Origin: an uncultured Candidatus Saccharibacteria bacterium
GTDB lineage: Bacteria; Patescibacteriota; Doudnabacteria; UBA920
Assembly: GCA_964600695.1 (NCBI GenBank)
Contig: CAZRKK010000003.1
Coordinates: forward strand, 22,914-86,913
Length of the DNA stretch: 64,000 nt
Direction of reading: 5' to 3'
The notes under the pieces are model-generated. The model made no database searches. It was not told the DNA's origin and was given only the letters and a program-made list of their open reading frames with translations. The translations under genes and the position numbers were made by a program. This document shows, in pieces, positions 6,319 to 31,541 of the stretch (positions are counted from its first letter, which is position 1; each line of letters begins with the position of its first letter).

Positions 6319-6927
6319 TTAGCCATTCACTGTGGTTGAGAGTGCTTGAAACTTTACAAAGTCTACTAGCTTTCTGGACCTGGACGGATGGCGCAATATC
6401 CGCAAAGCCTTGCCCTCTACTTGTCGGATACGCTCGCGGGTTACACTAAGGACTTGTCCAACTTCTTCCAAAGTATAGCCTCCAAAAAAACGAAGGATGA
6501 TCACTGTTCTCTGTTGGTTATTTAGAGTTTTGAGAAGCTCTTGCACAGCAACCTTTAGCTCAAAATCAAAACTGAGTTCAATGACTTGAATTGGGGAGAC
6601 TAATTCTTTAATCCCACCAGATTTGAGATGGCAAACACAATCGAGGTTATAAGCCTCATCACGCACCTTGCGATCGTTTAAACTTAATTCCTCAACCAGT
6701 TTTGGTTTCGGGAAAAGTTCATCTGGAAATTTACCAGTGAGTTCAAACAACCGCTCCGAAAGTTGTTGTGAAAGCCCTTTTTTAGGTATGTATTTAAAGG
6801 TAATTAATCTAACATAATAAGTTACACTAATCCCTAAAAACTTTGCAGTGTCCTTGTCAGACCAACCACGCTTATTTGCAGCAGCTTCAATATCCTGATG
6901 CCTCTCGAGCTTACTCTTTTTATTCAT
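6319..6927 (-). CDS. Sigma-70 region 4 domain protein with an additional N-terminal HTH
   Basis: The C-terminus QQRTVIILRFFGGYTLEEVGQVLSVTRERIRQVEGKALRILRH is a typical sigma-70 region 4.2. The N-terminus has an HTH-like GWSDKDTAKFLGISVTYYVRL. No recognisable region 2. Confidence 0.6.
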   Translation of the reverse strand: MNKKSKLERHQDIEAAANKRGWSDKDTAKFLGISVTYYVRLITFKYIPKKGLSQQLSERLFELTGKFPDELFPKPKLVEELSLNDRKVRDEAYNLDCVCHLKSGGIKELVSPIQVIELSFDFELKVAVQELLKTLNNQQRTVIILRFFGGYTLEEVGQVLSVTRERIRQVEGKALRILRHPSRSRKLVDFVKFQALSTTVNG

Positions 6928-7080: not shown

Positions 7081-7494
7081 CTATTCAGCTTTTTCTGCTG
7101 GTTTATCTTTCTTTACAGACTTCTTGTTCTTACTCATAGCTGTTTTAGACTTTGTTGTATTCTTACGAACACGAGGAGTGTTGTCGCGAAGTTCGCGAAC
7201 ATAGTATAACTTGCTTTGACGAACTAAATCATCTTTTACAACTTCGATCTTAGCAATATTAGGAGAGTGTAATGGGTAGATACGTTCTACACCAACGCCG
7301 TTAGAGATTTTACGAACCATGAAAGTTGCGTTAGCACCAGTTCCACCCTTACGAGCGATAACTAGACCTTCGAAAATCTGAATACGTTCTTTACCACCTT
7401 CTTTAATACGATTATGAACCTTAACAGTGTAACCGGTTTTAAAAGGTGTGTGGTCTTTAAGTTGTTCTGCTTTTAAATTCTTTACGAGTTTCAT
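7081..7494 (-). CDS. rplS: 50S ribosomal protein L19 with a Lys-rich C-terminal tail
   Basis: [68 protein letters not shown]. Confidence 0.9.
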
Positions 7495-7495
7495 A

Positions 7496-8473
7496 TTATA
7501 ATAAATTAACTTTCTTGCTATTAAGCTTTGTGAGTATTTCTTTGAGGTCTTTTGGAAATTCGCTTTCCGCTTCTATCCAAGACTCATCAGGTAATTGAAC
7601 TTCAATCTTTTTTGCATGAAGGAACTGCCTGTTAAGGCCAAGCTTCATGACATTCTTGCCACCATAGAGTTCGTCCCCCACAAGAGGGAAACCGGCGGAA
7701 GAAAAATGAACGCGTATCTGATGCGTTCTACCTGTGTGTAATTTTACAACAACTAGGGTGTATTCGTCAAGGCCGCCCGGTAACTGAAAACTTAGGTGTT
7801 CTAGCACTTCGTACTCCGTTAAAGCCGGCTTTGGTATGCCCATATCGCTCTTTTTTATAGTATGTTTACGGAAATCGTTCTTGCTTTTACCCATTGGTTG
7901 GTCAAAAGTGCCATGTGAATTGGGCATATTACCACGAACTAAGGCAATATACTCCTTTTTTACCTTCCGCTCAAAAAAAGCATCTTTAAGGTGTTCATAC
8001 ATAGGTTGTGTGAGAGCCACCAAAATCACCCCAGAAGTATCTTTATCTAAACGATGAACAATCCCATGGCGTTCTTCCTCTCCCACCAAATGAATATCTT
8101 TAAAGTGATATAACAGAGCTTGAGCTAAAGAATCACCTTTAAAGCCTGCTCCAGGATGAACCACCAAACCAGCTGGTTTATCTATAATTAACAGACCATG
8201 GTTGTTGTATAAAGTCTTGATCGGAATGTTCAACGGTTGAGGCTTCTCGGCTGCAGGACTCGGATTATAAACAATAACACTATCCTTCTTAACAGCGCGG
8301 TGTGGTAAAGTATCTACTTCTCCGTTAACTGTTACTAAACCAATTTCGATATCACGTTGAATTTTACTACGAGACATTTTTGGTAATTTTTGCGCCAAAA
8401 ATTTATCTAAACGAATTTTTAGATCTTCTACTACAAACTTTTCGGTTGTACTACTGTTTTCTGCTTTTGTCAT
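7496..8473 (-). CDS. rluD: RluA-family 23S rRNA pseudouridine synthase (RluD-like) with an N-terminal S4 domain
   Basis: S4 domain: [30 protein letters not shown]. Catalytic motif: [14 protein letters not shown]. Confidence 0.85.
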
Positions 8474-8493
8474 ATCGGTCTTTCTTAACTGAA

Positions 8494-9270
8494 TTATTGA
8501 ATTAAATCTGGACGACGCTTTTTAGTTCGCTTGATAGCTTCTTCGGTACGCCACTTCTGAACATTTAGATGATGACCACTAAGCAAAACCTTGGGGACTC
8601 GCAGTTTTTTACCCGCAACCTCTAATACTTCTGGTTTGGTATATTGAGGATATTCCAACAACACTCCATTTTTTTTAACTGCATCAGAAACAGCAAAACT
8701 TTCGTTATCTGCAGACTCATCTTTCCCAAGCACGCCAGGTATTAACCGTAAGACAGCTTCGCTAATTACTAACGATGGTAGTTCACCACCCATTAGTACA
8801 TAGTCACCAACAGAGAGTTCTTCGTCTACAAATTTACGGACGCGTTCATCAAAGCCTTCATAACGACCAGATACAAATACTAAATTATCATACTTGGCTA
8901 ATCGACGAGCATGAGCTTGATTAAACTGTTTACCTTGAGGAGTTAGTAGAATTACACGTGTCTGCTTAGTGTGCGATGTTTTGTCAGCACTTTTTTCTAA
9001 AGAACTAGCCCGACCACGCGCTTTCGCTATCGCTTTTATAACTACATCCGGACGAAGGACCATCCCCAAACCACCTCCATAAGGACGGTCATCTACAGTC
9101 TTGCGTTTATCTAAACCAAACTTTCTTAAATCTATAGCGGTAAATTTAACCAAGCGAGATTTGATAGCTCGAGCAATGATCCCAAAACTAGTGTATTGGT
9201 TAACAAACTCTGGGAAGAGTGTGATTACGGAAATAGAAATTCGCCTGTTCATATAGTAATAGTAACACAA
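8494..9270 (-). CDS. trmD: tRNA (guanine37-N1)-methyltransferase TrmD (the true start is probably the internal Met at about 9252)
   Basis: ISVITLFPEFV...DDRPYGGGLGMVLRPDVV...VFVSGRYEGFDERV...LSVGDYVLMGGELPSLVISEAVLRLIPGVLG. Confidence 0.9.
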   Translation of the reverse strand: MCYYYYMNRRISISVITLFPEFVNQYTSFGIIARAIKSRLVKFTAIDLRKFGLDKRKTVDDRPYGGGLGMVLRPDVVIKAIAKARGRASSLEKSADKTSHTKQTRVILLTPQGKQFNQAHARRLAKYDNLVFVSGRYEGFDERVRKFVDEELSVGDYVLMGGELPSLVISEAVLRLIPGVLGKDESADNESFAVSDAVKKNGVLLEYPQYTKPEVLEVAGKKLRVPKVLLSGHHLNVQKWRTEEAIKRTKKRRPDLIQ

Positions 9271-9346
9271 AACCCGCTACTTTCACCTTGCGGCAGCTGC
9301 GGGTTTTGATTTGTTTTTTGTCCCGCACTAGCGGGCTAAATTTAAA

Positions 9347-9700
9347 TTAAAGCTTGAAATCGTCCATGTCTGCTTGTACGTCTTCGTTACGAGACTCTGC
9401 TTGAGAGTCGGAGTGAGAATCACTGCCATGTTCGCGACGAGGACCACGGTGAGAACCTTCTGGTTCGTAAATCTTCAAGTTTACACGAGCTTTGTGCTTA
9501 GCACCAACCACACGTAATAGTGTGCGAAGAGCTTTTGCAGTTTGGCCCATGCGACCGATAACCTGACCCATATCATTTGGGTTGATGTGCAAAGTGATCA
9601 GTACGCCCATTTCGTCTACACTGCGTTCTGTTTTTACATCATCTGGGTTGTCGACCAAAGCTTTGACTACGAATTCAACAAATGCTTGATCATTTTCCAT
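9347..9700 (-). CDS. khpA: KH-domain RNA-binding protein (KhpA/YlqC, UPF0109 family) with a charged C-terminal extension
   Basis: MENDQAFVEFVVKALVDNPDDVKTE...GVLITLHINPNDMGQVIGRMGQTAKALRTLLRVVG. The longer ORF starting at 9793 would begin 6 nt after a terminator T-run, so the Met at 9700 is preferred. Confidence 0.7.
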   Translation of the reverse strand: MENDQAFVEFVVKALVDNPDDVKTERSVDEMGVLITLHINPNDMGQVIGRMGQTAKALRTLLRVVGAKHKARVNLKIYEPEGSHRGPRREHGSDSHSDSQAESRNEDVQADMDDFKL

Positions 9701-9808
9701 GGTATCTATATAGTATTCTGCGATAGGAAAGTTGGCTTCGACCGTGCCATCTATTGCACTGATAGAATAACAAAAATTAGTACCATGTGTCAATATTTTT
9801 CAATTAAA

Positions 9809-9838
9809 AAACCGCTAAGTAAATTTACAAAGCGGTTT
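9809..9838 (-). terminator. Rho-independent terminator after the 772-aa surface protein gene
   Basis: aaccgct-aagtaaatttaca-agcggtt, followed by tttttt on the minus strand. Confidence 0.55.
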
Positions 9839-9859: not shown

Positions 9860-12178
9860 TTATTGAGCAGTTTCGTTACGAACTGGCTTACCAGTGTCAG
9901 AGAATAAGTATGGAGGAGTAGTAACTCTTTTTGGTCCTGGTGGAGTCATGATACTATCTTCGTTAGTTTTAATTTCTGCAGTGTTCCAGAATCTATACAA
10001 GAAGCTTGTTGCACCAACAGGTGCTTTGAGCTTAGCAGAAATCTTTAAGGTACAAGGCGCGTTAGGAGCTACGTCACTTACATTGTATGGACCAGATGTT
10101 CCAGCACCTGAAGAGTTACAACCAACTGTGCCGTCTAATTTAACTTGATCTAAATTATGAGCATCAATTTCTGTGACTGTTACCCCTGTGATTGGACCAA
10201 AACCTGTATTACAAATATTAATATTGAAGTAAACTTTACTACCGGTTTTAAATATTCCACTACTAGGAAGCCCAAACGGATCAGATATGCTATTACATCT
10301 TAGAGCAGTCGAACTATTAGTATTATTGTCTACTTTGTATAAGTCCTTATCGGAACTACCAAGGTCGGGAATACACGGTTCAAGGACTCCTAAGACTACA
10401 TTTGAAATCGAAGAAGGAGAACTTCCATTAAATGCTCTTACCATATACCAATAACCGGCTCCAGTTCTTGGGCTAGGGTCTTGAAAACTTGTAACTGAAG
10501 GACCCAACAAAGGAGAGATTGCTGTATACTCTGGCCATGATCCTGATGGATCAGGACCACCACTTGAAGTCCATCGATAGACTTTGAAGTTTGTTGCAGT
10601 AGGTAAACCTCCGCCAGGGCTCCAATTTACGTTAACCTCACCACAAGGATTGGTAATCCAAACTATTGGAGCAGAAGGTCCAACAGGTGCAGAAACCCTT
10701 ACCCAAATTTCATCTGTGCCAGATAAAGTTGTTGGATCTGTATCATCACAAACTGCAGAAAATAAAGTATCAGATGTTAATGGTCCAGACGTGCGACTAG
10801 CAGTTAAGCGATTGTCCCACACCACACCATCTTTAAAAACAGTGCAGACTGTAGAATTTCTAGGATCCCATCTAATTATTGATTCGCCACCATACGGTAT
10901 AGTACAATCTACTGGGCTATTAGTGTTACAATAAATATCAACAGATGGCGATAAACCTGCTCCACCATCAACTCTAAAATTTATAGGCGGGCAAAACTTT
11001 GGTGTTCCAACTGCAGGTGTAGCCTTAATAATAATTTGGTGATTCCCTGCGGTGGTATTAATATCTGTCGAAATATCTACTTTGGCAAACTTATCGTAAG
11101 GACTAAGAAGAGGGTTTGGGTTCATTGCTGTATTAGCAATTGCTACCGAAGGAGGATTACCACCTGGTGGAGTAATTGATTCCAAACTAAAAGTAACAGG
11201 TTGTACAAATCCATTAACAGGATTTATTCGAAAAGTAGAGGAACCTCCAAAACCTCTAGTAACATTATGAGTTCCACCACTCATCAGTTCACAGCTAAAG
11301 GTGGCTCCAGGCGGGACAGCCACATTAATTATTACCGAACGAGTCGGACTATTAGATTGATACCCCTGACAAGTAATTGTATAAGTAAATCTACCAGGGT
11401 TCAAAAATGGACCAACACTTTGATTGCCTCCACCGGGACCGTTTTTAGGACCAACCCAAGTAGAATCAGAATTATTATTCGCAGCAACACAAGAATTACC
11501 AGGATTAACAAACTCTGTGTTCCAGTTAATATTAGCATTATCATTTACCTCAAGATTGATTTCGTTTTGACCATTAATTAGCAATGAGACATCTGGGTTA
11601 CCGTAAATTGCTAAGTTAGTATTAGTTGTTCTGGTGATGTAAGTTGGTCCGCTAGGCTCATCTACAATTAAATTTACATAAATTGCCGCACTTCCTCCAC
11701 CTATAGTATTTGGTCCAGGGGTGCAAGAATTTTGATGTGTAGAAACCATAATGAACCCATCTGCTTGAATAGGTGGGGCTGTAAATATATTAGACATTCC
11801 TGGTGTAGGATTTGGGGCGTATGAATGCTGGTGATGAGAATATCCATCATCTGTTTGATAAGTTCTACCAGATGTAAAAGACGCCACACTAGAATCGTGT
11901 GTATACCTATAAACATGACCAGCAGTCAACTCAAGGTCAAAAAAGTTTTCTCCTGGGAACTGCTCTCCATTGTCTGCGGCATAAGAAGCAACTACGACAT
12001 CAGGTTCAGGGGTTGTATCAACTATATCTAAATAAGTCGATAATGAATGACAGATTTCGTTAGCTTGAGCCTTCTTTGCATCAAAAACAACACTAGGAAT
12101 TATAGTGGCAGCGATTAATGCAAAAAATAATAGTAAATTTACAATCGATTGAATATTTGATTTGAATTTTTGTTTCAT
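9860..12178 (-). CDS. Large secreted cell-surface protein (772 aa), Gly/Pro/Ser/Thr/Asn-rich, with an Fn3-like segment and a C-terminal domain shared with the 1069-aa paralog
   Basis: N-terminal signal/anchor MKQKFKSNIQSIVNLLLFFALIAATIIP. The C-terminal ~170 aa (DKDLYKVDNNTNSSTALRCN...GSKVYFNINICNTG...FLYRFWNTA...TPPYLFS) is paralogous to the C-terminus of the 16223-19432 product. Confidence 0.7.
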   Translation of the reverse strand: MKQKFKSNIQSIVNLLLFFALIAATIIPSVVFDAKKAQANEICHSLSTYLDIVDTTPEPDVVVASYAADNGEQFPGENFFDLELTAGHVYRYTHDSSVASFTSGRTYQTDDGYSHHQHSYAPNPTPGMSNIFTAPPIQADGFIMVSTHQNSCTPGPNTIGGGSAAIYVNLIVDEPSGPTYITRTTNTNLAIYGNPDVSLLINGQNEINLEVNDNANINWNTEFVNPGNSCVAANNNSDSTWVGPKNGPGGGNQSVGPFLNPGRFTYTITCQGYQSNSPTRSVIINVAVPPGATFSCELMSGGTHNVTRGFGGSSTFRINPVNGFVQPVTFSLESITPPGGNPPSVAIANTAMNPNPLLSPYDKFAKVDISTDINTTAGNHQIIIKATPAVGTPKFCPPINFRVDGGAGLSPSVDIYCNTNSPVDCTIPYGGESIIRWDPRNSTVCTVFKDGVVWDNRLTASRTSGPLTSDTLFSAVCDDTDPTTLSGTDEIWVRVSAPVGPSAPIVWITNPCGEVNVNWSPGGGLPTATNFKVYRWTSSGGPDPSGSWPEYTAISPLLGPSVTSFQDPSPRTGAGYWYMVRAFNGSSPSSISNVVLGVLEPCIPDLGSSDKDLYKVDNNTNSSTALRCNSISDPFGLPSSGIFKTGSKVYFNINICNTGFGPITGVTVTEIDAHNLDQVKLDGTVGCNSSGAGTSGPYNVSDVAPNAPCTLKISAKLKAPVGATSFLYRFWNTAEIKTNEDSIMTPPGPKRVTTPPYLFSDTGKPVRNETAQ

Positions 12179-12227
12179 AATATGATTAACTTTTCTTTAG
12201 TATAGCACGAATTGATAAAAAAATCAA

Positions 12228-12261
12228 CTAAAAAAGACAGCGAAAGTTAACTTTGCTGTCT
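12228..12261 (-). terminator. Terminator after the metalloprotease gene
   Basis: agacagc-gaaagttaactt-gctgtct, then ttttttag on the minus strand. Confidence 0.5.
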
Positions 12262-12272
12262 TAAAATACAGA

Positions 12273-13685
12273 TTAGGGTAGAGTTATGACTATCCCGCTT
12301 CCGCCAGTAATATTTGTTATAGAAACATGACTCACCACCACACCAGCAACAGAATAACTTTGCAACACTAATGGTGCATTGTTGGTAGTTGTATCAAATG
12401 GAGTTGTATCTACAATGTATGGAATTGCATCGAAATCAGCCAATTGATCTGTACCAACAATTATCTTTACCCCATCTCGGTATGCTCGAAGTTGTTGATC
12501 ATAAATGTCAAACAATGGGTAATCCCTTCGAACTTCGATATACTCACTACTACCTAGTAGTGAACCACTAAGTGGAATAAAACAAAACTGACAAGACATC
12601 AATCTTTTAGTAGCCGGACTAGAAAATACCGACGGACTATAGACATTGTAACGACCAGAAAATTGCGGTTGTTTAAATGGTTGGTTGTGCCAACCCAACC
12701 TACGTCGCTGGTATACATTAGGAAGCATTTGCCCGGTGCCCATAAAACAAGATTTATCACCATATTCAAAGATGGCGCAACTGCTTGGAATGTTATTTTG
12801 GTCAGTGCATTGGTAAACTTTTGAATGTTGCAATCCGAGTGTATGCCCCAACTCATGAGTTGCCATCTCGTTTGCCCACGTGGCAGTCATGTCATTCTTG
12901 TTAGTAATAACCCACTCACGCGAGTTCATCATGCCGATATTACCAAATGTTGCAATGCTCTGAGTACTACAACCTGCCAGATTATTAAACGTTAGAATCG
13001 TGGCATTGTAGTTGTTAGGTTCTATGCTCTGGGCACGCAAACCATCATCAATCAAAGTTAGCCATTCACTAGTTTGCTGTTGTTGGCAATTAGTAATCTG
13101 CGAGTTAATGGTCACAAATGCAACATCACCTTCAATTCGGTTTGTATAACCAACAATTTTTAGGCGACCTGAAGATGCAACATCCATAAATACTCTTGCA
13201 GATTTAGGGTTATGGAATACTGGGGCAAGGGCTTGCGCCGCGGTAATATAGTTAGAATCTACCGGGGGACTACCAGGTTGTTGAACAGAAACTACCACTG
13301 AAATAACTTTATAATCACCTTGTGAAGTGGGTGGCAACGTCATATCAACATAAAGAGGAGAATCTAAAGTTGCTATACTTTTAGGTTCAACTTTTAAAAC
13401 TCTTAGCCCATCTTTTTGGAGTTTGAATCTTCCATCTAGAGAAACTAAGCGATTAACATATTTTCCCCAATCAACGGAACTATCCAGTTCTAAAAATGAA
13501 CCATTGACCAACAACTTAAAGGAGTAATCAGCACTGACCCCAATATCTTCAGAGACAAATGCCTTAACCACTCCTTGATAGTTTTTGCTCAAATTCTTGG
13601 TGAAATCCTTAGTTTGTCCAAAAACAAACAGAGGAAAACTCCACAAAATCAACATTACCAAAACTACATAACATTTCTTATACAT
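12273..13685 (-). CDS. Secreted zinc metalloprotease, metzincin-type (HEXXHXXGXXH)
   Basis: Signal peptide MYKKCYVVLVMLILWSFPLFVFG. Extended zinc-binding motif HELGHTLGLQH (HExxHxxGxxH), with a downstream SCFMG as a possible Met-turn. Confidence 0.75.
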   Translation of the reverse strand: MYKKCYVVLVMLILWSFPLFVFGQTKDFTKNLSKNYQGVVKAFVSEDIGVSADYSFKLLVNGSFLELDSSVDWGKYVNRLVSLDGRFKLQKDGLRVLKVEPKSIATLDSPLYVDMTLPPTSQGDYKVISVVVSVQQPGSPPVDSNYITAAQALAPVFHNPKSARVFMDVASSGRLKIVGYTNRIEGDVAFVTINSQITNCQQQQTSEWLTLIDDGLRAQSIEPNNYNATILTFNNLAGCSTQSIATFGNIGMMNSREWVITNKNDMTATWANEMATHELGHTLGLQHSKVYQCTDQNNIPSSCAIFEYGDKSCFMGTGQMLPNVYQRRRLGWHNQPFKQPQFSGRYNVYSPSVFSSPATKRLMSCQFCFIPLSGSLLGSSEYIEVRRDYPLFDIYDQQLRAYRDGVKIIVGTDQLADFDAIPYIVDTTPFDTTTNNAPLVLQSYSVAGVVVSHVSITNITGGSGIVITLP

Positions 13686-13785
13686 ATTACTTTCCTCCTA
13701 GGATTTCTTTTACACTCTGATTATATAATAAAAAAGCCAATAATAGAACCTATTATTGGCTTTTTGTCAAGCAGTTATAAAATCT

Positions 13786-14982
13786 CTAATTTACCTGACC
13801 TCTACCTCTGACAACTATACCTTTTAATATAACCCCAGGTGGGCTTGAAGGACCAGAAAGTTCTTGTTCGGTGACAGAACTACTATTGTTCGCGGTTAAA
13901 CTAATTGATGAGCCACAATTCACTGTTGGCCCATTAGGAGGAGAGCCTGGTGGTGAGAAACTCATCGTCACTCCAGTAAATTCACTGACAGCTTCTAATT
14001 GAGTTATTGGACCAGTAAAACCACCAGTACAAACAGCTACAACTGTAAAGGTTTTTGTTTGGCCAAGTAAAATCCTGTTTGGTGTTGTCTGTGAAGGAGG
14101 CACGCCTACCCCTTCTGGCCCTGGAGTAACCTGTAATTCAAAGTTTGGAGTGGAAGGATTTACGATTAATTGTGCTGTCGTACATTGTCTAGTCACGCCA
14201 CCACCTGTTCCTGTGAAAGTTAAAGTATATGTTCCGGGAGTAGTACCACTAGGACCACTCGAGGTAGTTACGTTTGCCTGAGTAATAGCAGGAGGACTTT
14301 GACCGATACTTGGCAAAGATATTACTGGTGGATTGGCTACAGGTGGAGAAATACTAGCTGTGTAGGTTACTGGACTATTAAAACCATTGGTTGGAAAAGA
14401 TTCAATATCATATATAAAACTACTTCCCTGATTTAGGGTGTGAGTTGGTGGTAAAACACTACAAGTAAAACTAGTGCCGGGATTAAAGTAAACCTCCATA
14501 CCAGCACCAGCACTTTCATCCATATTACGACAAGATGAATCTGCCATAATAACTACTTCGGAAGCACCTCTTGTAAAATAAAACGGAGGCGGTCCCATCT
14601 GACCTTGAGGATCGCCAGGATTCCATGAAAGTTGAGTTTGACCAGCGTCATTAATAGTAGCACCGGAAATAGTCATATTTCCTGCTTGCTCATAAGGCCC
14701 TGTATCACCTTGTGCACCTGACATGAAACTAACATCAATAATGTCACCAGGATTAGTTGGTACATCCCCGCCGCCACCCCAATGGTTACCATCTGTATCT
14801 CCATAGGCCCAAAATTCAGTTGTCACATTAGTGGCTCTATTTGTAAACCACCCAGTAATTTCAACCGCACACCACCCAGCTGCCGCAGCTTTGGGTGTAT
14901 AAACTATACTTGTGCCAAAAAACGTTGAAAGTAATAGCAACGTACTAACGCTAAGTCTTAAGATTGAGTTATAAAATTTCAT
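13786..14982 (-). CDS. Secreted surface protein (398 aa), a paralog of the large surface proteins
   Basis: Signal peptide MKFYNSILRLSVSTLLLLSTFFGTS...AAAAGW. Its segment YTLTFTGTGGGVTRQCTTAQLIVNP matches YTLTFTATGGGVTRTCQATLTVSP in the 1069-aa protein. Confidence 0.65.
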   Translation of the reverse strand: MKFYNSILRLSVSTLLLLSTFFGTSIVYTPKAAAAGWCAVEITGWFTNRATNVTTEFWAYGDTDGNHWGGGGDVPTNPGDIIDVSFMSGAQGDTGPYEQAGNMTISGATINDAGQTQLSWNPGDPQGQMGPPPFYFTRGASEVVIMADSSCRNMDESAGAGMEVYFNPGTSFTCSVLPPTHTLNQGSSFIYDIESFPTNGFNSPVTYTASISPPVANPPVISLPSIGQSPPAITQANVTTSSGPSGTTPGTYTLTFTGTGGGVTRQCTTAQLIVNPSTPNFELQVTPGPEGVGVPPSQTTPNRILLGQTKTFTVVAVCTGGFTGPITQLEAVSEFTGVTMSFSPPGSPPNGPTVNCGSSISLTANNSSSVTEQELSGPSSPPGVILKGIVVRGRGQVN

Positions 14983-15002
14983 ACCAATTATAAATTAATA
15001 AG

Positions 15003-15521
15003 CTACAGCTCTATATAGGTAATAGTAACTGTTTTCTTTTTACTGGTTTTATTTTCATCTACAGCAATAATCAATTTTTGATCCTCTTTGCTACCGGTTA
15101 CTTTCATAAATGTTGGATCATTGTTAGAAACAACAGTTTTCCAACCATCTTTTTTTAGAAAGTTAGTGTACAAATCAATATTTTCTACTAAGGATTTTTT
15201 GGTTATAAAACTTCGGGTAGCCTGCAGGCGACCATCAGGAGTAGCAGCATTGTAATTTTCAGTAATTTCCACACCTTCTTCTAACGGAATATTATTAGGA
15301 AATTTTTCTGGGAACTTACTAAAATCAATATTAGTTTTTTTGACCTGACTAGTCCTTTTAATTTGATCCGGTGATAACTGGTTTGATGATTTATTTTTTT
15401 GCCAGGAATATACTTGAGTTGCTCCATAAATAAGCAATAATGATAGTGCTATCACTACAAGAATTTTAACTGGCCGTGAATTGATTAAACCACCCTTTAA
15501 TTGAGGGTCTAGATTTTTCAT
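15003..15521 (-). CDS. Small N-terminally membrane-anchored protein, paralog family member 1 of 4 (unknown function)
   Basis: One TM anchor (ILVVIALSLLLIYGA) plus a ~110-aa domain with the family consensus FPxNIPLEEG...DGRxQATRxF.TKKSL.EN..LYT.FLKK.GW. Confidence 0.65.
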   Translation of the reverse strand: MKNLDPQLKGGLINSRPVKILVVIALSLLLIYGATQVYSWQKNKSSNQLSPDQIKRTSQVKKTNIDFSKFPEKFPNNIPLEEGVEITENYNAATPDGRLQATRSFITKKSLVENIDLYTNFLKKDGWKTVVSNNDPTFMKVTGSKEDQKLIIAVDENKTSKKKTVTITYIEL

Positions 15522-15577
15522 TTTAGTTTCTTAATGTGCTCATTTTTTATACTATACCAGATTTAGCTCAAAGCCCC
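15522..15577 (-). promoter_or_regulatory. Conserved upstream element (probable promoter/leader) shared with 16106-16160
   Basis: About 80% nucleotide identity over ~55 nt immediately 5' of the two paralog start codons. The minus strand contains TATAGTATAAAA, a -10-like sequence. Confidence 0.45.
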
Positions 15578-15607
15578 AAGCTAGAGTCGCGAGTAACCTG
15601 CTTTTAT

Positions 15608-16105
15608 TTACTTATTCTCTGTATAACTAATTGTTACAATCTTAACCTGATTAATTTTATTTTCTTCGATGGTTACTTGGATAGCTTTCTTTAATAAATT
15701 TCCCATTACCATCTTATAAGTAGGATCGTCTGTTGTGGCCTTAATTTCCCAACCGTTTTTTTTCATGAAATCTGTGTACAAAGCATAGTTTTCTGCTAGT
15801 GATTTTTTGGTCTCAAATTGACGTGTTGCCTGAAACTGGCCCTCAGGTGTTTCTGAGTTATAATTTTGAATAACTTCAGCACCTTCTTCTAATGGGATGT
15901 TACTTGGAAATTTTTCTGGTAACTTACTGATCTCTACATCGGTCTTTTCTACATTAACCAACTGAGGGACCTCTGCTACTTTTTTTGTATTCATTAATTT
16001 ATATGCTACAAACAACAAACACAAGATTACAACAACCATCAGTAAGAGTTTAAACAACTGATTAAAATTAACCGATGAGTCAGGTTGGCTATTTTTATTT
16101 TCCAT
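15608..16105 (-). CDS. Small N-terminally membrane-anchored protein, paralog family member 2 of 4
   Basis: LPEKFPSNIPLEEGAEVIQNYNSETPEGQFQATRQFETKKSLAENYALYTDFMKKNGW, closely similar to the 15003-15521 product. Confidence 0.65.
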   Translation of the reverse strand: MENKNSQPDSSVNFNQLFKLLLMVVVILCLLFVAYKLMNTKKVAEVPQLVNVEKTDVEISKLPEKFPSNIPLEEGAEVIQNYNSETPEGQFQATRQFETKKSLAENYALYTDFMKKNGWEIKATTDDPTYKMVMGNLLKKAIQVTIEENKINQVKIVTISYTENK

Positions 16106-16160
16106 TTTAGTTTCTTAATACACTTATTTTCTATACTATAGCAGATTTAAGCCCAAATTG
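16106..16160 (-). promoter_or_regulatory. Second copy of the conserved upstream element
   Basis: tttagtttcttaatacacttattttctatactatagcagatttaagccc here, versus tttagtttcttaatgtgctcattttttatactataccagatttagctc at 15522. Confidence 0.45.
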
Positions 16161-16222
16161 CAAAGTTTAAATAAAATAACTGCACGAAAGTGCAGTTATT
16201 TTGGTCACATCTTGATTAAACC

Positions 16223-19200
16223 CTACGGAGCGCTTTCTCCTCTGGATGGAACACCTGTCGCACTAGTAGAATACAAATAAGGTGGTGTTGCGACTGTCTT
16301 TGGATTCAACTCGTTAGAATAAATTATAGCTTGATTCCAAAATCTATGTAAGTAACCAGTAGATGCAGAAGGGGTAGCTATTGTGGCTTCCAAATTTACA
16401 TAACAAACCGGTATAGGTTCTTTCTGGTTTGTCCAACCTTCTATGTCGCCAACAGTAATAAAGCCTTTACCACTATCTTCAATCTTACATAAGTTTTTTT
16501 CTGGTATCACCGGAGTGATATCAATCAAATTATTACTACCGGACAACTCGACTCTAATACCAGTTAAAACCTTACTACCTGAGTTACAAACATTGATAGA
16601 GAAATAAACTTTACTTCCGGCTCTAAACACTCCCTGGTTAGGAAGTACGAAAACATCTGATTTATCATTACAAGCCGTAGATGAACCGTTGATATTATCA
16701 ACCTTCGTCAAATCTTGATCGGACAAATCTATGTTTGGTGCACAGCTTGTAGGGATGACTGGATTAGCAGCTGCATAATCAGAATATAATCCATCTAAAT
16801 AAGACCTCACAGAATAATAATTTTCGAACTCACTATAGAAAGGTTCTGTATGAATAAATGAGAACTTTCCATCACCAAGACCCGTATCTATTATTGGCCC
16901 ACTAACTAGTTCCTGAGTAGCTGACTTCAATGATCCTCCTGTAGGATATGATAGACTATAAACTTCGTAGTGAGCTGGTGTTGGTCCAGATTTAGGTCTG
17001 TCCCAAGTTACTTCGACAGTTCCACAGGTCTGGCCTGCCTTAGCCTGTACATTTGTTGGATCTTGAGGAGCAACACCACTAATAATTAAAGTAACATAAC
17101 ATGTTAAAGTTTGAGGAGTACCCTGAAAACCACCTGGATCTGAAGCCCAATCGATTGGATACTTAATCTCCGGTACAGCACTCAAGGTTAAGATATGAGT
17201 GCCTGCTGTGGTATTACCTGAAGTTGAGACAATTACACTGGACTGTCCGGGAGTACCCTCTTGAGGATTATTAGAATAACTAAAAGTAGGTGGATTTGCT
17301 GGCTGGCCATTATCAAAGCTTGGAACAATATTAATATTGTAATAGTTTATTAAAGGAAGAGTCATCGAAACATCAACTGTAATCACCCCTGGAGCACCAC
17401 CCTTTGTTAACATCAAAGGCGAAGGAGCACAAGCCATTGTATCTACATTAATAAAAACTGAATCTTTTAATGAGGTTGGTTTACCCATGACATTTGCATC
17501 ACATCTAATGCTAAACTCAGTAGTCTCGGTAACTTCCACATCCATCTCTGGAACTTTAGCATAAGTTACATCACCAATGTTTGGTTGGATACTTATTGCA
17601 TCACATAAATTTGAAGTCCAAGAAATTTTTGTGGTTTCACCACTTAACACCCGGCAAGGACCATCATTAGGGGTATCTTTAGAATTAGAAATACATTTAA
17701 TATCAATACTTGGACTACCAACCACTTCGATATTTACAGTAACAGTGTCTACTATAGTTGGTGCTTCGCCAAAAGCTGGATCACAACTGATTATGAAAGT
17801 TGTATCTCCCGAGATAGTAACATCTAAACCTGGGTTAGTATTATTACTAGCCACTAATCCAATACCATTATCTATGGAAACTGGTCCACAATATTCTGAG
17901 GTCCAAGTTAAGTTTGTTTTTGCTCCGCTTACCACAGTACATGGACCATCACTGGCAATTCCATCTGTACCTGTACATTTAATATCAACGGTACGTGTGC
18001 CGGAAGGAACATTTATAGTCACAGTATCACTTACACTGCCGCCAGGGCCCGTACATAATAATGTATAGATAGTTGTTGTGAATAACGCACCAGTAGAAAC
18101 GCCGACTACTTCACTTGTACCTGGACTATAACCAGAAATTGTTGGAGACAAAGTACAACTTTGAAGGTTAGTGGTAGAGAAATATAACAATGCGTATCCA
18201 CCAAAGGCCACGTCACAAGGTCCATCAACACCAGAGACATCACCATCACCTTGACATTGTAAATCAGCAGTAGGTGTTGCTGGAGCCCCTACATTAACAA
18301 TTACTTCATCATACGCGGTACTGCCATATTGAGCAGTACAGGTGAGTCTAAATTGATAAGTTGTGTTTGTTTGTAGTCCTGTAAGTGCTTGAGTTTCCTG
18401 ACCGGAGTTTGCAGTATTTTTAGCTCCAGACCAAGAACCATACGACCCCTGAGTCATACTCGCCGAACAAGAAGTGGCATCTTGTGTGACCCATTCTAAT
18501 TCCCCAGTTGAACCATTAGAAGGTGTTGGAGTAGTTGGTCCATCTGAGTTATTAAATTTTAAGTTAACTACTGGTATAAGCGGTGAAACCGTTAATGTTG
18601 CTTGGCAAGTTCTAGTTACCCCACCACCGGTTGCTGTAAAAGTTAAGGTATATGGATCAGTAGAATCTAAATTAGCGGTAGGGACTATGACATTGTTCAA
18701 ATAACTATTACCTGAATTCAGTTGAACATCTGCAATATCTGTTAATCCATTGTCTGGCGCGATCGTGGTTCCAACAGTAATGTCGGAACTAAAATTTGTG
18801 AGGTTAGATGCTAGCACAGGGAAATTAGCATTTTGCCCACGAGTAACACTTTGGTTTACACCACAAGAAAAGTCAAAACTTGGTGTACCAGTTCCGCTAT
18901 AAGTTACATAGGCATACCATAAAATTTCTGTGGTATTACCGCAAGCTTGAGCTGTGACTGTTATCCATAATGCGTAGCCTGTAGCAGTAATAGTCGGAAC
19001 ATCATAACTAGAACTATAATCAGCTGGTCCAACCTTATTACCACCTGTAACAGTTTCATCAAAAACAGTTATACCATCTACTTGTATCTGACTATGAACT
19101 GTTCCCTCAGCATCACCAGGTCCAGCATTTCCAGTCATATCAATGTGGAAATTTGAAAGCTCGTTAGCATATTGAGTTGTGGCACCACCGTTATTATTGA

Positions 19201-19432
19201 CTCCATTAACACCATCTGCAGATTGATTTATAGGACCACTCGGAGAATCATAGGAAACACTAATATGAGCACGGGTGTCTGCTAACTCAGGATAAACAGA
19301 ACAAAATTCCGCACCTTGAGCTTTAACCTCAGGAGTTATTAGAGGAGCTGTAGTAAAAAACATCCCCAAAACCATAACCAATCCAAGAGTGGCCGATAAA
19401 TAAATGTTAGTTTTTGCTATTAATCTCTTCAT
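16223..19432 (-). CDS. Very large secreted cell-surface protein (1069 aa) with internal tandem Ig-like repeats, an Fn3-like segment and the shared C-terminal domain
   Basis: Signal/anchor MKRLIAKTNIYLSATLGLVMVLGMFFTTAPL. Two adjacent ~95-aa repeats (DIKCTGTDGIASDGPCTVVSGAKTNLTWTSEYC... and DIKCISNSKDTPNDGPCRVLSGETTKISWTSNLC...). The C-terminus ...GSKVYFSINVCNSG...YLHRFWNQA...TPPYLYS is paralogous to the 772-aa protein. Confidence 0.7.
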   Translation of the reverse strand: MKRLIAKTNIYLSATLGLVMVLGMFFTTAPLITPEVKAQGAEFCSVYPELADTRAHISVSYDSPSGPINQSADGVNGVNNNGGATTQYANELSNFHIDMTGNAGPGDAEGTVHSQIQVDGITVFDETVTGGNKVGPADYSSSYDVPTITATGYALWITVTAQACGNTTEILWYAYVTYSGTGTPSFDFSCGVNQSVTRGQNANFPVLASNLTNFSSDITVGTTIAPDNGLTDIADVQLNSGNSYLNNVIVPTANLDSTDPYTLTFTATGGGVTRTCQATLTVSPLIPVVNLKFNNSDGPTTPTPSNGSTGELEWVTQDATSCSASMTQGSYGSWSGAKNTANSGQETQALTGLQTNTTYQFRLTCTAQYGSTAYDEVIVNVGAPATPTADLQCQGDGDVSGVDGPCDVAFGGYALLYFSTTNLQSCTLSPTISGYSPGTSEVVGVSTGALFTTTIYTLLCTGPGGSVSDTVTINVPSGTRTVDIKCTGTDGIASDGPCTVVSGAKTNLTWTSEYCGPVSIDNGIGLVASNNTNPGLDVTISGDTTFIISCDPAFGEAPTIVDTVTVNIEVVGSPSIDIKCISNSKDTPNDGPCRVLSGETTKISWTSNLCDAISIQPNIGDVTYAKVPEMDVEVTETTEFSIRCDANVMGKPTSLKDSVFINVDTMACAPSPLMLTKGGAPGVITVDVSMTLPLINYYNINIVPSFDNGQPANPPTFSYSNNPQEGTPGQSSVIVSTSGNTTAGTHILTLSAVPEIKYPIDWASDPGGFQGTPQTLTCYVTLIISGVAPQDPTNVQAKAGQTCGTVEVTWDRPKSGPTPAHYEVYSLSYPTGGSLKSATQELVSGPIIDTGLGDGKFSFIHTEPFYSEFENYYSVRSYLDGLYSDYAAANPVIPTSCAPNIDLSDQDLTKVDNINGSSTACNDKSDVFVLPNQGVFRAGSKVYFSINVCNSGSKVLTGIRVELSGSNNLIDITPVIPEKNLCKIEDSGKGFITVGDIEGWTNQKEPIPVCYVNLEATIATPSASTGYLHRFWNQAIIYSNELNPKTVATPPYLYSTSATGVPSRGESAP

Positions 19433-19448
19433 GTAATTCGTTAATGAA

Positions 19449-19949
19449 TTATTTTGTGGACTTTAGGTTTTGAATAACACTAACCTCTAGAATTGATCCT
19501 TTACCTGCAGGATCCTCAGTAGCGACAATCATTAAAATATTGTTGTCTTTAGAAAATAGTGCTGGAGACTTTATTGCCTCTGTATTATTGCGAACCCAAC
19601 CTAAATTTTCAAAAAAGCTAGCATATTTTACTAATGCTTTTTGAGCTGAAAGAGCAGAAGTAAATTTTCGAGTAGACTGAGTACGCCCATCATTCGTGGT
19701 GGATTCGGAGTTTTGCAAAATTTTCCCACCAGATTCACTAGGAAGATTGTCTGGGAATCCTTTTAGAGTCTGAGTTTTATTAACATCTTTAGTTTGAACC
19801 TCAAATTTTGGAGTAGTTTGATCTACTTTAGTAGTGAAGTAGTTTTTTGACCATAAAAACCAAAAAAATCCTGTTAGTATAAGTAACACGATTAAGGCAC
19901 CCACTAATAATTGCTTGTGATTAGTTTTTGGGGATACTGGATTATCCAT
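19449..19949 (-). CDS. Small N-terminally membrane-anchored protein, paralog family member 3 of 4
   Basis: TM anchor LLVGALIVLLILTGFFWFLW, then KGFPDNLPSESGGKILQNSESTTNDGRTQSTRKF...FFENLGW. Confidence 0.6.
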   Translation of the reverse strand: MDNPVSPKTNHKQLLVGALIVLLILTGFFWFLWSKNYFTTKVDQTTPKFEVQTKDVNKTQTLKGFPDNLPSESGGKILQNSESTTNDGRTQSTRKFTSALSAQKALVKYASFFENLGWVRNNTEAIKSPALFSKDNNILMIVATEDPAGKGSILEVSVIQNLKSTK

Positions 19950-20034
19950 TTGAATTTATTTTTGTTTCGATTCCGAAAATTTACTTTTTAATTATAGCAT
20001 AAAAAGATTTTTTTTGCAATAGAACTTTTAAGTT

Positions 20035-20520
20035 TTACTTTGTGAACTCTGTTAAGGTCATTGTAATAACATTAACTTTGTTATTTGGATCTAGAGCTGC
20101 AGAGATTTGTAACAGTTGGTTATCTTTTTTACCAGCAACCATTTTCACATTAGACTGATCTAAGCTATTATTTATTGTCCAACCATTGTCTTTTAAATAC
20201 TTGGTGTAGAGGGTAATATTCTGAGCTAAAGTTTTCTTACTTTCAAATTCGCGAGTAGCATTAAATCTACCGTCTCCTTCAATGGCATTAAAATTACTAG
20301 TCACTACAGCACCTACCTCTGTTGGTAAGTTGACTGGAAACTTGTCGGGCAAGGTACCTTTATCGACTTGGGTAATTTGTACAGGCTTCACCTTTTCGAC
20401 TTTGTTAATTTTTGAATTTGGCTGGAGAGGATAATTTGATAACTGAATTGCTACAAACAGTAAAGCTAGCAATGCAGCCACCATAACTACCATTTTAAAC
20501 ACAGGGTTATTTAGTTCCAT
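20035..20520 (-). CDS. Small N-terminally membrane-anchored protein, paralog family member 4 of 4
   Basis: DKFPVNLPTEVGAVVTSNFNAIEGDGRFNATREFESKKTLAQNITLYTKYLKDNGW. Confidence 0.65.
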   Translation of the reverse strand: MELNNPVFKMVVMVAALLALLFVAIQLSNYPLQPNSKINKVEKVKPVQITQVDKGTLPDKFPVNLPTEVGAVVTSNFNAIEGDGRFNATREFESKKTLAQNITLYTKYLKDNGWTINNSLDQSNVKMVAGKKDNQLLQISAALDPNNKVNVITMTLTEFTK

Positions 20521-20568
20521 TTTAGTTTTGTTAATTTTATTATTTTTTTTTAAACTTCAAATTTAAAT

Positions 20569-21300
20569 TTAGTATTGAGCTCTAGTCTTTGTACGCTTTA
20601 CTTGTAAATAGACTTTTGCGGGACTTAAAGTAGGTTCAGTTTTATTTCTACTATTACTCGAAGGTTTATTAACCAACTGTGAATACTCTGACCACCCTCC
20701 ACCATTTCTTGCCGAAGGTGTGTACTCAACCTTACCTTTACCTACGGAAATTCCAACTCTTGCATCCGAGATTAAGACACCTGCAGGCATTGGTCTAGTT
20801 TGATAATGTAACCATAAGCAATCTGGTATTTTAGTTCTACTACGGGGTGTGGAGTTCTTGCTAGCCCCGCCGCCTAAGCTAGCCCATGATGTCCATTGAA
20901 CAACTGTCTGTTCACCTGTACAATCAGACTTTTTTTCTGCCATGCTGATTCCAATTCTAAAATCTTGTTGATAGATAGCACCATTCAAGGGAGCAGAACC
21001 AACATTACCAGGATCAAAATAGATACTCGCACAGTCTGGATCCTTTGCGTTTTCATCTGTACCATAACTTGAACCACCAGGAACCGCTAAAGCGGATTCT
21101 ACTTCTTGATCTGTGCAATAATGGTCCATTAACGCAACCTTAAAACCTGTTGGAGCTAAAGCAGATGGAGTTGATGTATTCCCAGAGGAAGCATCACTAT
21201 ATTTTGGAGCTAATCTTTTTCCCTGGAACGCGTATGCAGCAGTTCCGACTAATGCAACACCAGCTAATACAAGCACTGGTAATATTAATTTTGGTTTCAT
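20569..21300 (-). CDS. Secreted hypothetical protein (243 aa) containing Cys
   Basis: Signal peptide MKPKLILPVLVLAGVALVGTAAYA. Six Cys. No recognisable domain. Confidence 0.55.
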   Translation of the reverse strand: MKPKLILPVLVLAGVALVGTAAYAFQGKRLAPKYSDASSGNTSTPSALAPTGFKVALMDHYCTDQEVESALAVPGGSSYGTDENAKDPDCASIYFDPGNVGSAPLNGAIYQQDFRIGISMAEKKSDCTGEQTVVQWTSWASLGGGASKNSTPRSRTKIPDCLWLHYQTRPMPAGVLISDARVGISVGKGKVEYTPSARNGGGWSEYSQLVNKPSSNSRNKTEPTLSPAKVYLQVKRTKTRAQY

Positions 21301-21371
21301 TTTTGGATCTTATTTTGCCAAACTTGTAAATTTATTATACCACAATATGTAAATTTCTTATTAATATTAGT

Positions 21372-21400
21372 ATTAAAGAAAAACCCTACTCACAGGAAGA
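21372..21400 (-). terminator. Rho-independent terminator immediately downstream of rpsP
   Basis: aaccctactc-acaggaa-gagtagggtt; the minus strand is followed by tttttc. Confidence 0.5.
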
Positions 21401-21415
21401 GTAGGGTTTAAAAAT

Positions 21416-21922
21416 TTATTCAGCTTTTTCTTCTGCCGATGTTTCGGGAGTTGCTTCTGGAGCGGCTTCTTCTGGCTTGGCTTCTTCAGCAGGAACTTCT
21501 TCTACTGCAACAACCATTTCTGGTTCTTCTGCAGGAGTTGCTTCTGCTGGTGTAGCTTCATCAGCTGGAGTTTCGGTAACAGCTTCATCGGCAGTAGCAG
21601 ATTCAGCTGCAGGTGCTTCTGGTTTAGCTTCTTCAGCTACAACTTCTTTTTTAGGAATAGTGAAAGATTTAGTTTTATCTGCTTTAAGGATTTCCTTAGT
21701 GACAAATAAGTTATGGACTGTAGCAGAGAGTTCAACATGCTGGTCGTTCATCCAGTAATTCAAACGGTCGTTGCTACGAATTCCTAATTCTTTAGTATGA
21801 GGATTGTAAGATCCTAAGATCTCTACAAACTTCTTTTGGTTAGCAGCGGTTTTTTGAGCTAACACTACTTTGTATTGAGCAGTGTTGCGTTTACCACCAC
21901 GTTGTAAACGAATAGTTAACAT
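21416..21922 (-). CDS. rpsP: 30S ribosomal protein S16 with an Ala/Glu/Pro-rich low-complexity C-terminal extension
   Basis: MLTIRLQRGGKRNTAQYKVVLAQKTAANQKKFVEILGSYNPH...NDRLNYWMNDQHVELSATV, followed by ~80 aa of EAKPEAPAAE-type repeats. Confidence 0.9.
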   Translation of the reverse strand: MLTIRLQRGGKRNTAQYKVVLAQKTAANQKKFVEILGSYNPHTKELGIRSNDRLNYWMNDQHVELSATVHNLFVTKEILKADKTKSFTIPKKEVVAEEAKPEAPAAESATADEAVTETPADEATPAEATPAEEPEMVVAVEEVPAEEAKPEEAAPEATPETSAEEKAE

Positions 21923-24750: not shown

Positions 24751-24979
24751 AACTCTATTTATTATATCATGCCACTAAATATACTATTTCATTGGCAAAA
24801 CTCTTAAACAATAAATACAAAAACGACTTCCTTCCACAGATAGCGGATTTTGAAAGTCGTTTTTGTAAACTTTGTGTTTGTTTGGTTACTCGGAAATCTT
24901 TCCTAAGTTCAGATTATCAAGTGAGCCAAGGTCGGTCAATCTGACTTATCCCCTTTTTGGTAAAATAGCAGCTAAAATT

Positions 24980-29867: not shown

Positions 29868-30313
29868 TAAGATTGATTTGTTAAGAAACGGTAAACTACT
29901 TGAACTATGATATAAGACAAAACGATTATAGCTAAACCAATAAGTGCGTTGACTAAAGTTTTACGTCCAGCCTTAGCGGTTTCGTCATTACCGCCAGCGT
30001 AAATATATTGGTAACCACCGTAGATGACAAAGATAACGGCGACAATTGCAGAAACATACAAAGCAATATCTATTACTCGCTTAGCTAAACCTTCTGGGGT
30101 CGCATCCTTATCGACAATTGTTTCTGGGAAAGCTTCGCTAATGGAGTCTAACCCATCTTGAACTCGGTCACCACTTGAAGAGGTGGAAGTTGATGTTGCG
30201 GGGTTAGTAGAAGTCTGAGCATCAACACTAGATAATGGTAACCAAGCAAAAATAGTTACAAACACCACCGTCATTATTATATTTAGACCAATTTGTTTTA
30301 TCGACTGCTTCAT
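29867..30313 (-). CDS. TrbC/VirB2-like pilin-domain protein, paralog 2 of 7
   Basis: C-terminus: DIALYVSAIVAVIFVIYGGYQYIYAGGNDETAKAGRKTLVNALIGLAIIVLSYIIVQVVYRFL. The stop overlaps the start of paralog 1. Confidence 0.6.
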   Translation of the reverse strand: MKQSIKQIGLNIIMTVVFVTIFAWLPLSSVDAQTSTNPATSTSTSSSGDRVQDGLDSISEAFPETIVDKDATPEGLAKRVIDIALYVSAIVAVIFVIYGGYQYIYAGGNDETAKAGRKTLVNALIGLAIIVLSYIIVQVVYRFLTNQS

Positions 30314-30411
30314 AATTAAATATTAATTAAATAATTCTGGAGGGAAAATTAATAAATTTTGCCCCCAGAATTACCCCGCATACTAACTACTGCTAAATGC
30401 GGGATAAAGAA

Positions 30412-31531: not shown

Positions 31532-31541
31532 TATTTATTTT

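Follow-up and report, generated by a model that had tools for sequence, protein, structure and literature searches.

In a 64,000-nucleotide stretch of the genome of an uncultured Candidatus Saccharibacteria bacterium (hereafter the window), nine co-oriented genes at 9860-21300 on the minus strand part the ribosomal gene rpsP from the khpA-trmD-rluD-rplS unit, and the distance from the stop of rpsP to the start of khpA is ~11.7 kb. This raises the question of what these genes encode, how long they have been there, and what they might do for the cell. Our analysis strongly supports the view that the island is ancient and clade-specific and that it encodes fibrillar surface proteins exported through Sec, small partner proteins anchored in the membrane, and a protease that is also secreted. 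On balance, we think it likely that the island is a cell-surface attachment module in which fibrils are held by small anchors, their heads bind a partner cell, and the protease assists. New within this fibrillar-adhesin-type locus are the C-terminal tail of the large proteins and the partner protein; full-text literature searches found no account of this module in Saccharibacteria.

Products of the nine genes

All nine open reading frames (ORFs) are intact. According to hydrophobicity windows, each product has a single N-terminal hydrophobic segment and no other, and none has a C-terminal one. The features of the island, in the order of transcription, are as follows.

21325-21360 (-): promoter-like site for the island, upstream of g243; extended -10 element tgtggTATAAT, a consensus match only
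20569-21300 (-): g243, secreted protein of 243 residues with four Cys; free-standing 'DPDC' head domain
20035-20520 (-): g161, small single-pass membrane protein with a PF27226 (AF_1845)-type ectodomain, by paralogy and a precomputed Pfam match
19449-19949 (-): g166, small single-pass membrane protein that diverges most among the four paralogs
16223-19432 (-): g1069, large Sec-exported fibrillar protein
15608-16105 (-): g165, small single-pass membrane protein; transmembrane (TM) helix at residues 14-39 and ectodomain in the model
15003-15521 (-): g172, small single-pass membrane protein that opens the ancestral four-gene cassette, ordered as in L089 and L090
13786-14982 (-): g398, secreted protein with head and immunoglobulin (Ig)-like domain, without the CLIPPER module
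13731-13765 (-): intrinsic terminator after g398; 16-bp perfect stem, -17.9 kcal/mol
12273-13685 (-): g470, secreted metzincin-type zinc protease
12225-12262 (-): intrinsic terminator after g470; -12.9 kcal/mol, z = -2.9
9860-12178 (-): g772, large Sec-exported fibrillar protein
9805-9838 (-): intrinsic terminator after g772, at the end of the island; -15.6 kcal/mol, z = -4.4

The first-pass annotation of this DNA had described nine co-oriented genes, among them three large secreted proteins rich in Gly, Pro, Thr, and Asn, a metzincin, and four small anchored paralogs, and it had called the locus adhesin-like. Our analysis bears this out: the four residues make up 35-41% of the three large proteins, each of which has an N-terminal hydrophobic segment, and the architecture of secreted and anchored proteins together with a metzincin is adhesin-like. 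The Cys-containing secreted protein of that annotation is g243, which does have four Cys but is better described as a free-standing copy of a head domain. Terminators had been placed after rpsP, the protease, and g772; these stood, but the count is four, because the one after g398 was missed. All four carry a U-run and fold well. Partly autonomous transcription, also proposed there, is consistent with these terminators and with the promoter-like sites.

The domain order of g772 resembles that of a fibrillar adhesin and includes a repetitive Ig-like stalk: a signal peptide (residues 1-39) is followed by a head (40-175), three Ig-like domains (192-495), an fn3 domain (496-600), a CLIPPER-like domain (601-760), and an exposed tail (761-772). 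The AlphaFold2 model, computed on a 34-sequence alignment, had a mean predicted local distance difference test (pLDDT) score of 84.3 and a predicted template modeling (pTM) score of 0.38. It depicts a long, flexible chain of beads on a string, with a signal helix, a β-sandwich head, a disordered linker, and, past the linker, five β-domains (three Ig-like, fn3, CLIPPER-like). The signal peptide is most likely cleaved after A-Q-A at residue 39, according to prediction. Structure searches with g772 returned tandem Ig/fn3 ectodomains and bacterial adhesin stalks. In g1069, a head at about residues 38-185 precedes Ig/PKD/fn3-like repeats, for which the fn3/PKD Pfam matches were weak, and a C-terminal module of fn3, CLIPPER, and tail (773-1069). 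The two proteins share their ~300 C-terminal residues with 33% identity (482-771 of g772 and 773-1068 of g1069). The shorter g398 has an Ig-like domain in common with g772 and its own conserved C-terminus, …V-x-G-R-G-Q-V-N.

CLIPPER is the present name of the DUF11 family, a stalk domain of fibrillar adhesins with an intramolecular isopeptide bond (PMC12617251). Residues 644-738 of g772 matched CLIPPER/DUF11 (PF01345) with 28.3 bits at a gathering score of 24.6; g1069 had no direct CLIPPER match in Pfam, and P0067 had a precomputed one. A CLIPPER-type triad is present in the expected order in the 34-sequence alignment (K611 in 33 of 34, D/E670 in 33 of 34, and N732 in 32 of 34 sequences), which makes it probable that an isopeptide bond between its own Lys and Asn locks the domain.

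The C-terminal module, used as a profile in an exhaustive search, retrieved 340 cluster representatives at E ≤ 1e-3. The whole 300-residue module lies at the very C-terminus of 110 fetched sequences, which correspond to ~100 distinct 50%-identity representatives of 600-1,800 residues. The tail has the consensus T-P-P-Y-L-F-[SGT]-x2-3-G-x-[VT]-P-x-R-x-E-T-[AGS]-P, after which there are 0-2 residues and no hydrophobic segment; R767 and E769 are present in 34 of 34 sequences. In the model of g772, the Y-L-F-S part forms a strand and the last 12 residues are flexible with low pLDDT. Invariance combined with flexibility suggests that the tail is a short recognition motif. The nine products contain no LPXTG-type sorting signal detectable by NCBIfam sorting-signal models or C-terminal hydrophobicity windows.

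Neither the g772-type head (alignment A6) nor the g243-type head (alignment A7) matched Pfam or the PDB in sequence-profile searches. Elsewhere, 13 large family members begin with the g243-type head (BLASTP identity 35-48%, E down to 1e-47), and in loci L001, L092, L096, and L097 it is fused to the large protein.

The small proteins g161, g166, g165, and g172 are mutual paralogs with 28-40% identity and belong to a very narrow family, with only 12 homologs in 5.8 billion proteins in a word-indexed search. Our profile searches against the PDB and Pfam gave nothing significant for this family; precomputed matches assign the proteins to PF27226 (AF_1845). The model of g165 (pLDDT 87.9) consists of the TM helix and an ectodomain of ββαββββ topology resembling DcrB, PsbP, and Mog1, and the small proteins agree with PF27226 and the DcrB/PsbP/Mog1-like fold by both profile and fold. 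E73 and R95 of the small protein are invariant. The 53-nucleotide regions upstream of three of these genes (15513-15565, 16097-16149, and 20513-20565) are also related: those of g172 and g165 are 87% identical, the value for g161 is 60%, and they contain a TG-extended -10-like TATAGT/TATACT. The duplications that gave rise to the small paralogs therefore brought along a promoter-like region of their own.

The metzincin signature of the protease g470 is HELGHTLGLQHS, in which H277-E-L-G-H281-T-L-G-L-Q-H287-S fits HExxHxxGxxH. In an alignment with 10 homologs (A3), H277, E278, H281, and H287 were invariant, G284 was nearly so, and several Cys were conserved. Met315, within C-x-M-G and 28 residues past the third His, is a candidate for the Met-turn and is conserved in at least 90% of the homologs. 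Placing g470 in any one metzincin family (M10 matrixin, M11 gametolysin, or M12) failed for lack of a full-length match: the Pfam models M10, M11, and Reprolysin_5 scored just above their cut-offs over only 40-110 residues around the motif, the best metzincin matches in the PDB had E ≥ 0.18, and NCBIfam scores were far below the cut-offs. From its sequence, g470 is best treated as a locus-restricted metzincin outside the assigned families. Relatives of g470 number 11 in 5.8 billion proteins, including the window's own allele. The contigs of four were read, and all four relatives lie at this locus (P0017 in L081-L083, P0018 in L087, P0021 in L089, and P0026 in L090); the statement on position covers these four of the 11.

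The gene content of related loci varies, as follows.

L089, L090 (between rpsP and khpA): small, g398-like, metzincin, g772-like
L004, L005, L001 (between rpsP and khpA): small, metzincin, small, large
L092 (between rpsP and khpA): metzincin, small, large
L093 (between rpsP and khpA): small and large only, the minimal pair
P0097 contig (between rpsP and khpA): two small, S8 subtilisin, large
L094 (upstream of gatCAB): four small and four large, interleaved, no protease
L095 (upstream of gatCAB): two small and four large, interleaved, no protease

In 13 of the 13 loci whose sequence is complete enough, which represent two genomic sites, at least one small gene adjoins at least one tail-bearing large gene. 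Some loci do without a protease, and its class can be exchanged (metzincin, S8 subtilisin, or none). The order in L089 and L090 is that of the four khpA-proximal genes of the window, which therefore appears to have added five genes by duplication.

Age of the island and exchange between strains

The rpsP and khpA genes are normally contiguous, as the first-pass annotation had assumed. They are separated by 142-227 nucleotides in nine insert-less Saccharibacteria genomes (L006, L008-L013, L016, L022) and by 129 bp in the cultivated oral Southlakia epibionticum ML1 (SEML1_0591/0590, rpsP and a KH gene), which has no island at this site. In the closest relatives (L001-L005, L007) the same slot is filled with homologous island genes, and context look-ups identified further carriers (L087, L089, L090, L092, L093, the P0097 contig, L096, L097), giving at least 14 loci with TrmD identities from 56% upward. 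The TrmD of the window is at most 73% identical to that of uncultured Saccharibacteria metagenome-assembled genomes. A degenerate DNA pattern for the tail matched only two loci, both with the same rpsP-khpA context (L096/L097), and a metagenome scan with a protein pattern from alignment A2 gave no match. In a neighbor-joining tree of KhpA, TrmD, RluD, and RplS, the carriers formed one group in 67 of 100 bootstraps, nested among non-carriers.

The spacer of all nine non-carriers contains a strong rpsP terminator, a TTGACA/TATAAT promoter, and the conserved khpA leader, and the island in the window is placed exactly between the rpsP terminator and the khpA promoter and leader. The flanking features are as follows.

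21416-21922 (-): rpsP (Pfam Ribosomal_S16, E = 5e-10), extended C-terminally by an A/E/P/T-rich stretch; upstream boundary of the island
21381-21409 (-): intrinsic terminator of rpsP, ancestral; 11-bp stem and U-run, -16.8 kcal/mol, z = -6.1
9701-9793 (-): ancestral khpA promoter and leader, TTGACA-18-TATTCT with TG, leader ATAG…GGTCGAAGCC…CTATC; downstream boundary of the island
7081-9700 (-): khpA-trmD-rluD-rplS transcription unit, by Pfam
9347-9700 (-): khpA (Pfam KhpA; ORF 9347-9793)
8494-9270 (-): trmD (Pfam TrmD)
7496-8473 (-): rluD, RluD-type pseudouridine synthase, between trmD and rplS (Pfam)
7081-7494 (-): rplS (Pfam L19)

No operon was broken, since in this phylum a strong terminator already closes rpsP and khpA comes with a promoter and leader of its own. 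Because this boundary pre-existed, the placement is less odd than it looks. Hence, the island is an ancient insertion at a pre-existing transcription-unit boundary, vertically inherited and clade-wide in a subclade of Saccharibacteria. The first-pass annotation had called the locus inserted and its placement unusual; it is an insertion relative to the ancestral adjacency, but the boundary is old and the insertion shared by the clade. The comparison with related genomes that it had suggested showed an interruption shared by relatives with homologous surface genes, not housekeeping genes. Its assignments of rpsP, khpA, trmD, and rplS agree with Pfam; the RluD-type gene had been overlooked.

A recently acquired mobile island from another organism, landed by chance in the ribosomal cluster, could also interrupt a conserved cluster, and more distant genomes do have homologous arrays at another site, upstream of gatCAB. 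However, the composition is native (GC 0.389 in the island and 0.383 in the genome; GC at third codon positions, GC3, 0.254 and 0.298), and no integrase, transposase, tRNA, or flanking repeats were found at the island. One site is used in at least 14 loci over the whole range of TrmD identities, the carriers are monophyletic, and the sampled family members come from Saccharibacteria-type contexts. We therefore rejected recent horizontal transfer, which is extremely improbable and effectively refuted. The arrays at the gatCAB site imply that the module moved at least once in deep time. No paralogs of the island genes were found elsewhere in the 64-kb window.

We compared the window with a second strain recovered from three samples (L081-L083) and with a more distant relative (L087). 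Between the window and L081, khpA, trmD, g772, g470, and rpsP are 99.6-100% identical, and the interior of the island is finely mosaic, with blocks of 75-90% identity set among identical ones. In the g1069 head, nucleotide identity between the strains is 75-82% (dS 0.7-1.4), and residues 721-960 of the same protein are identical; g398 is 88.6% identical overall. Taken together, the heads of g1069 and g398 are 75-88% identical to those of L081, with head-segment dS of 0.33-1.4. We read these differences as the result of homologous recombination that swaps alleles, chiefly in the parts presumed to be exposed, which agrees with the natural competence described in Saccharibacteria (PMC10633639). 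The dN/dS ratio was 0.01-0.44 in 60-codon segments, with a whole-gene maximum of 0.57 (g166). Diversifying (positive) selection on the heads was unsupported at this resolution; the comparison points to old alleles, with dS up to 1.4, moved by recombination. The possibility raised earlier that the large ORFs are frameshifted pseudogenes is excluded by their intactness and by purifying selection (whole-gene dN/dS ≤ 0.57), and the apparent breaks in the g1069 homolog of L087 are only N-runs of the scaffold.

Flanking and neighboring genes

The S16 protein encoded by rpsP has a C-terminal extension of ~75 residues (21416-21640, minus strand), which is A/E/P/T-rich and derives from imperfect 15-18-nucleotide repeats. 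Its length and sequence differ among relatives, and homologs align over residues 1-94 to 1-137 only. Genes for SMC and RNase III lie beyond rpsP (Pfam). Between rnc and smc, L081 has an extra ~0.8 kb (429-1247) with a 272-residue ORF on the opposite strand that has no Pfam match; the segment is absent from the window at 24772-24908, a strain-specific indel in surroundings of 97-100% identity.

Homologs of KhpA align only from residue 30-35 on, which makes the ATG at 9700 the most likely true start of the gene. Between the promoter and the start codon, the leader has the form (G)ATAG(C)…AAGGTCGAAGC(C)…(G)CTATC, in which an outer stem is plausible. The promoter recurs in relatives that carry or lack the island, and the same leader is present in L001, L002, L004-L013, L087, L089, and L090, with or without the island. 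The leader matched no Rfam family and had no robust RNAalifold consensus fold; it may regulate the khpA-trmD-rluD-rplS unit as a leader not described before. This cluster lacks rimM, and rluD lies between trmD and rplS in all Saccharibacteria loci examined. Next to rplS, 6319-6927 (-) encodes a 202-residue protein with an N-terminal HTH_3 (XRE-type) domain and sigma-70 region 4 only, kept beside rplS in L087, which by its domains is predicted to be an atypical truncated sigma-like regulator.

Directly before ftsH, seven tandem genes at 28983-34392 (-) encode proteins of 148-326 residues that each end in T4SS_pilin (VirB2/TrbC-like, PF18895). This array, ~7 kb away from the island, is unusually large; in L093 the same place is occupied by three such genes. 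An orphan ORF at 55744-56592 (+) encodes 282 residues with a GC of 0.51 and a GC3 of 0.62 (genome 0.38 and ~0.29) and is followed by a terminator-like hairpin. It had no Pfam match and no credible Rfam match, and from its composition it looks foreign and possibly recently acquired.

Possible functions and known systems

How could these products work together? In the attachment reading, they would leave the cytoplasm via Sec, each with one N-terminal signal peptide or signal-anchor. The fibrils (g772, g1069, the shorter g398, and the head-only g243) would be built from a variable, disulfide-containing head, an Ig-like/fn3 stalk, a CLIPPER-type domain, and the exposed invariant tail. Held in the membrane by a single N-terminal helix, the small proteins would display a DcrB/PsbP/Mog1-like protein-binding domain that captures or assembles the conserved C-terminal module of the fibrils and keeps them at the envelope without a sortase. 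The heads would point outward and bind a partner surface, most plausibly that of a host bacterium, and the metzincin may mature or release the fibrils or cut the target surface. The island would have grown by duplication from a four-gene cassette (small anchor, g398-like, metzincin, g772-like) and would diversify between strains via homologous recombination. We infer that the fibrils are displayed at the surface and that anchor and tail interact, and likewise what the heads bind and what the protease does, and regard the island as a good candidate for a part in host interaction or episymbiosis.

Several observations weigh against this reading. The large proteins have no known wall- or membrane-anchoring signal, and their attachment to the cell is assumed; the link between anchor and tail is one of gene neighborhood only. 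The searches revealed no domain whose binding specificity is known, and in Pfam and the PDB both head types are orphans; a signal of positive selection is absent at 60-codon resolution. Bootstrap support for a single origin of the island is only moderate (67%). In the distant locus L088, two small genes enclose a subtilisin, and the 10 kb that were read contain no tail-bearing gene. Small genes also flank the metzincin in L004 and L005, and a protease-related role fits both arrangements equally well. Finally, the cultivated epibiotic S. epibionticum ML1 lacks the island at this site; the island is therefore not required for episymbiosis in general.

Two other functions have to be considered. 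The large proteins could be a structural envelope, an S-layer or sheath, which the small proteins attach to the membrane and whose precursors the protease processes. S-layer proteins too are strings of Ig-like domains, and SbsB was among the Foldseek matches (E = 1.6e-9); the adjoining ribosomal genes are highly expressed, and the GC3 of the large genes (0.23-0.24) resembles that of rpsP (0.22). Strain-level mosaic variation, which is typical of S-layer genes, also fits, and the conserved C-terminal module would be the cell-proximal anchor in either model. Yet a lattice protein would rarely be encoded by one to four large genes whose heads are swapped or free-standing among close relatives, and the several conserved Cys and the flexible beads-on-a-string model, with its pTM of 0.38, suit a fibril better than a sheet. 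Pfam and NCBIfam revealed no SLH or other known S-layer anchoring domain, and sister lineages and S. epibionticum ML1 are without the genes at this site. We consider an S-layer or sheath unlikely.

Saccharibacteria rely on scavenged amino acids (PMC10633639), and the locus could instead serve digestion or feeding around its protease, with the small proteins as inhibitors, chaperones, or tethers and the Ig-string proteins as substrates, scaffolds, or decoys. The unrelated S8 subtilisin between two small genes in L088 keeps a protease-related role of the small proteins alive, and the P0097 contig has a subtilisin in the metzincin's place. Potempins, anchored lipoproteins of 98-132 residues, are likewise encoded beside peptidases of differing catalytic classes (PMC9890683). 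Against a protease-centered locus, small and large genes are kept without any protease in L093, L094, and L095, and the window has four small genes for one protease. In addition, the DcrB/PsbP/Mog1-like fold is not that of a known protease inhibitor, in a comparison that did not include potempin structures. Digestion or feeding is in our opinion quite improbable, and attachment remains the reading that we prefer.

We further propose, tentatively and as a possibility that may well prove wrong, that the fn3-CLIPPER module, the invariant P-x-[RK]-x-E tail, and the small DcrB/PsbP-like proteins constitute an undescribed sortase-independent mode of fibril docking in Patescibacteria, in which interchangeable heads set the host cells of environmental Saccharibacteria. 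Little is known of host recognition and attachment in Patescibacteria beyond type IV pili, and nearly all of it comes from a few oral strains. The island is an easily located marker (rpsP-khpA, one clade) for ~100 sequence clusters of modular surface fibrils and offers a testable hypothesis of anchoring by tail and small partner protein, and metagenomes would allow its natural head alleles to be compared with host range. The island also illustrates that a "conserved ribosomal cluster" can hold a transcription-unit boundary that tolerates a large accessory island over long evolutionary time.

Among known systems, the KLIKK/potempin pairs of Tannerella forsythia (PMC9890683) resemble the island in that secreted metallo or serine peptidases are encoded beside small envelope-anchored proteins. 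They belong to another phylum with another envelope and have no sequence or demonstrated fold kinship with the island proteins, whose small genes persist without a protease. The small proteins have a fold like that of DcrB, PA1624, and Eag (DUF1795) and of PsbP/Mog1-fold envelope proteins (PMC7716261, PMC7773334) with only 8-10% sequence identity, and their anchor is a TM helix instead of a lipid. Eag chaperones work in the cytoplasm, where they bind the TM helices of type VI secretion system effectors, which do not exist here.

In S. epibionticum, the essential envelope 'adhesins' SEML1_0890 (fn3), SEML1_0891 (VCBS), and SEML1_0315 (dockerin) are fn3- or lectin-type surface proteins thought to touch the host (PMC10633639). 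Likened to the island proteins by description, they are a precedent for such proteins mattering in epibiotic growth; they are encoded at other loci, and a conserved tail or partner gene is not reported for them. The Gram-positive CnaA/CLIPPER (DUF11) fibrillar adhesins, for example those of the sortase-anchored MSCRAMM type (PMC12617251, PMC9210967), have in common with the island proteins a Sec signal, a distal head, and an Ig-like/fn3 stalk, and are also alike in the Lys, Asp/Glu, and Asn triad, in rapid diversification, and in domain shuffling. Unlike them, the island proteins are without LPXTG, hydrophobic stretch, or known sorting signal and have a single CLIPPER domain at the extreme C-terminus instead of tandem copies within the stalk. 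The island further differs in its family-specific exposed P-x-R-x-E tail, its orphan heads, and the adjacent gene for a small membrane protein.

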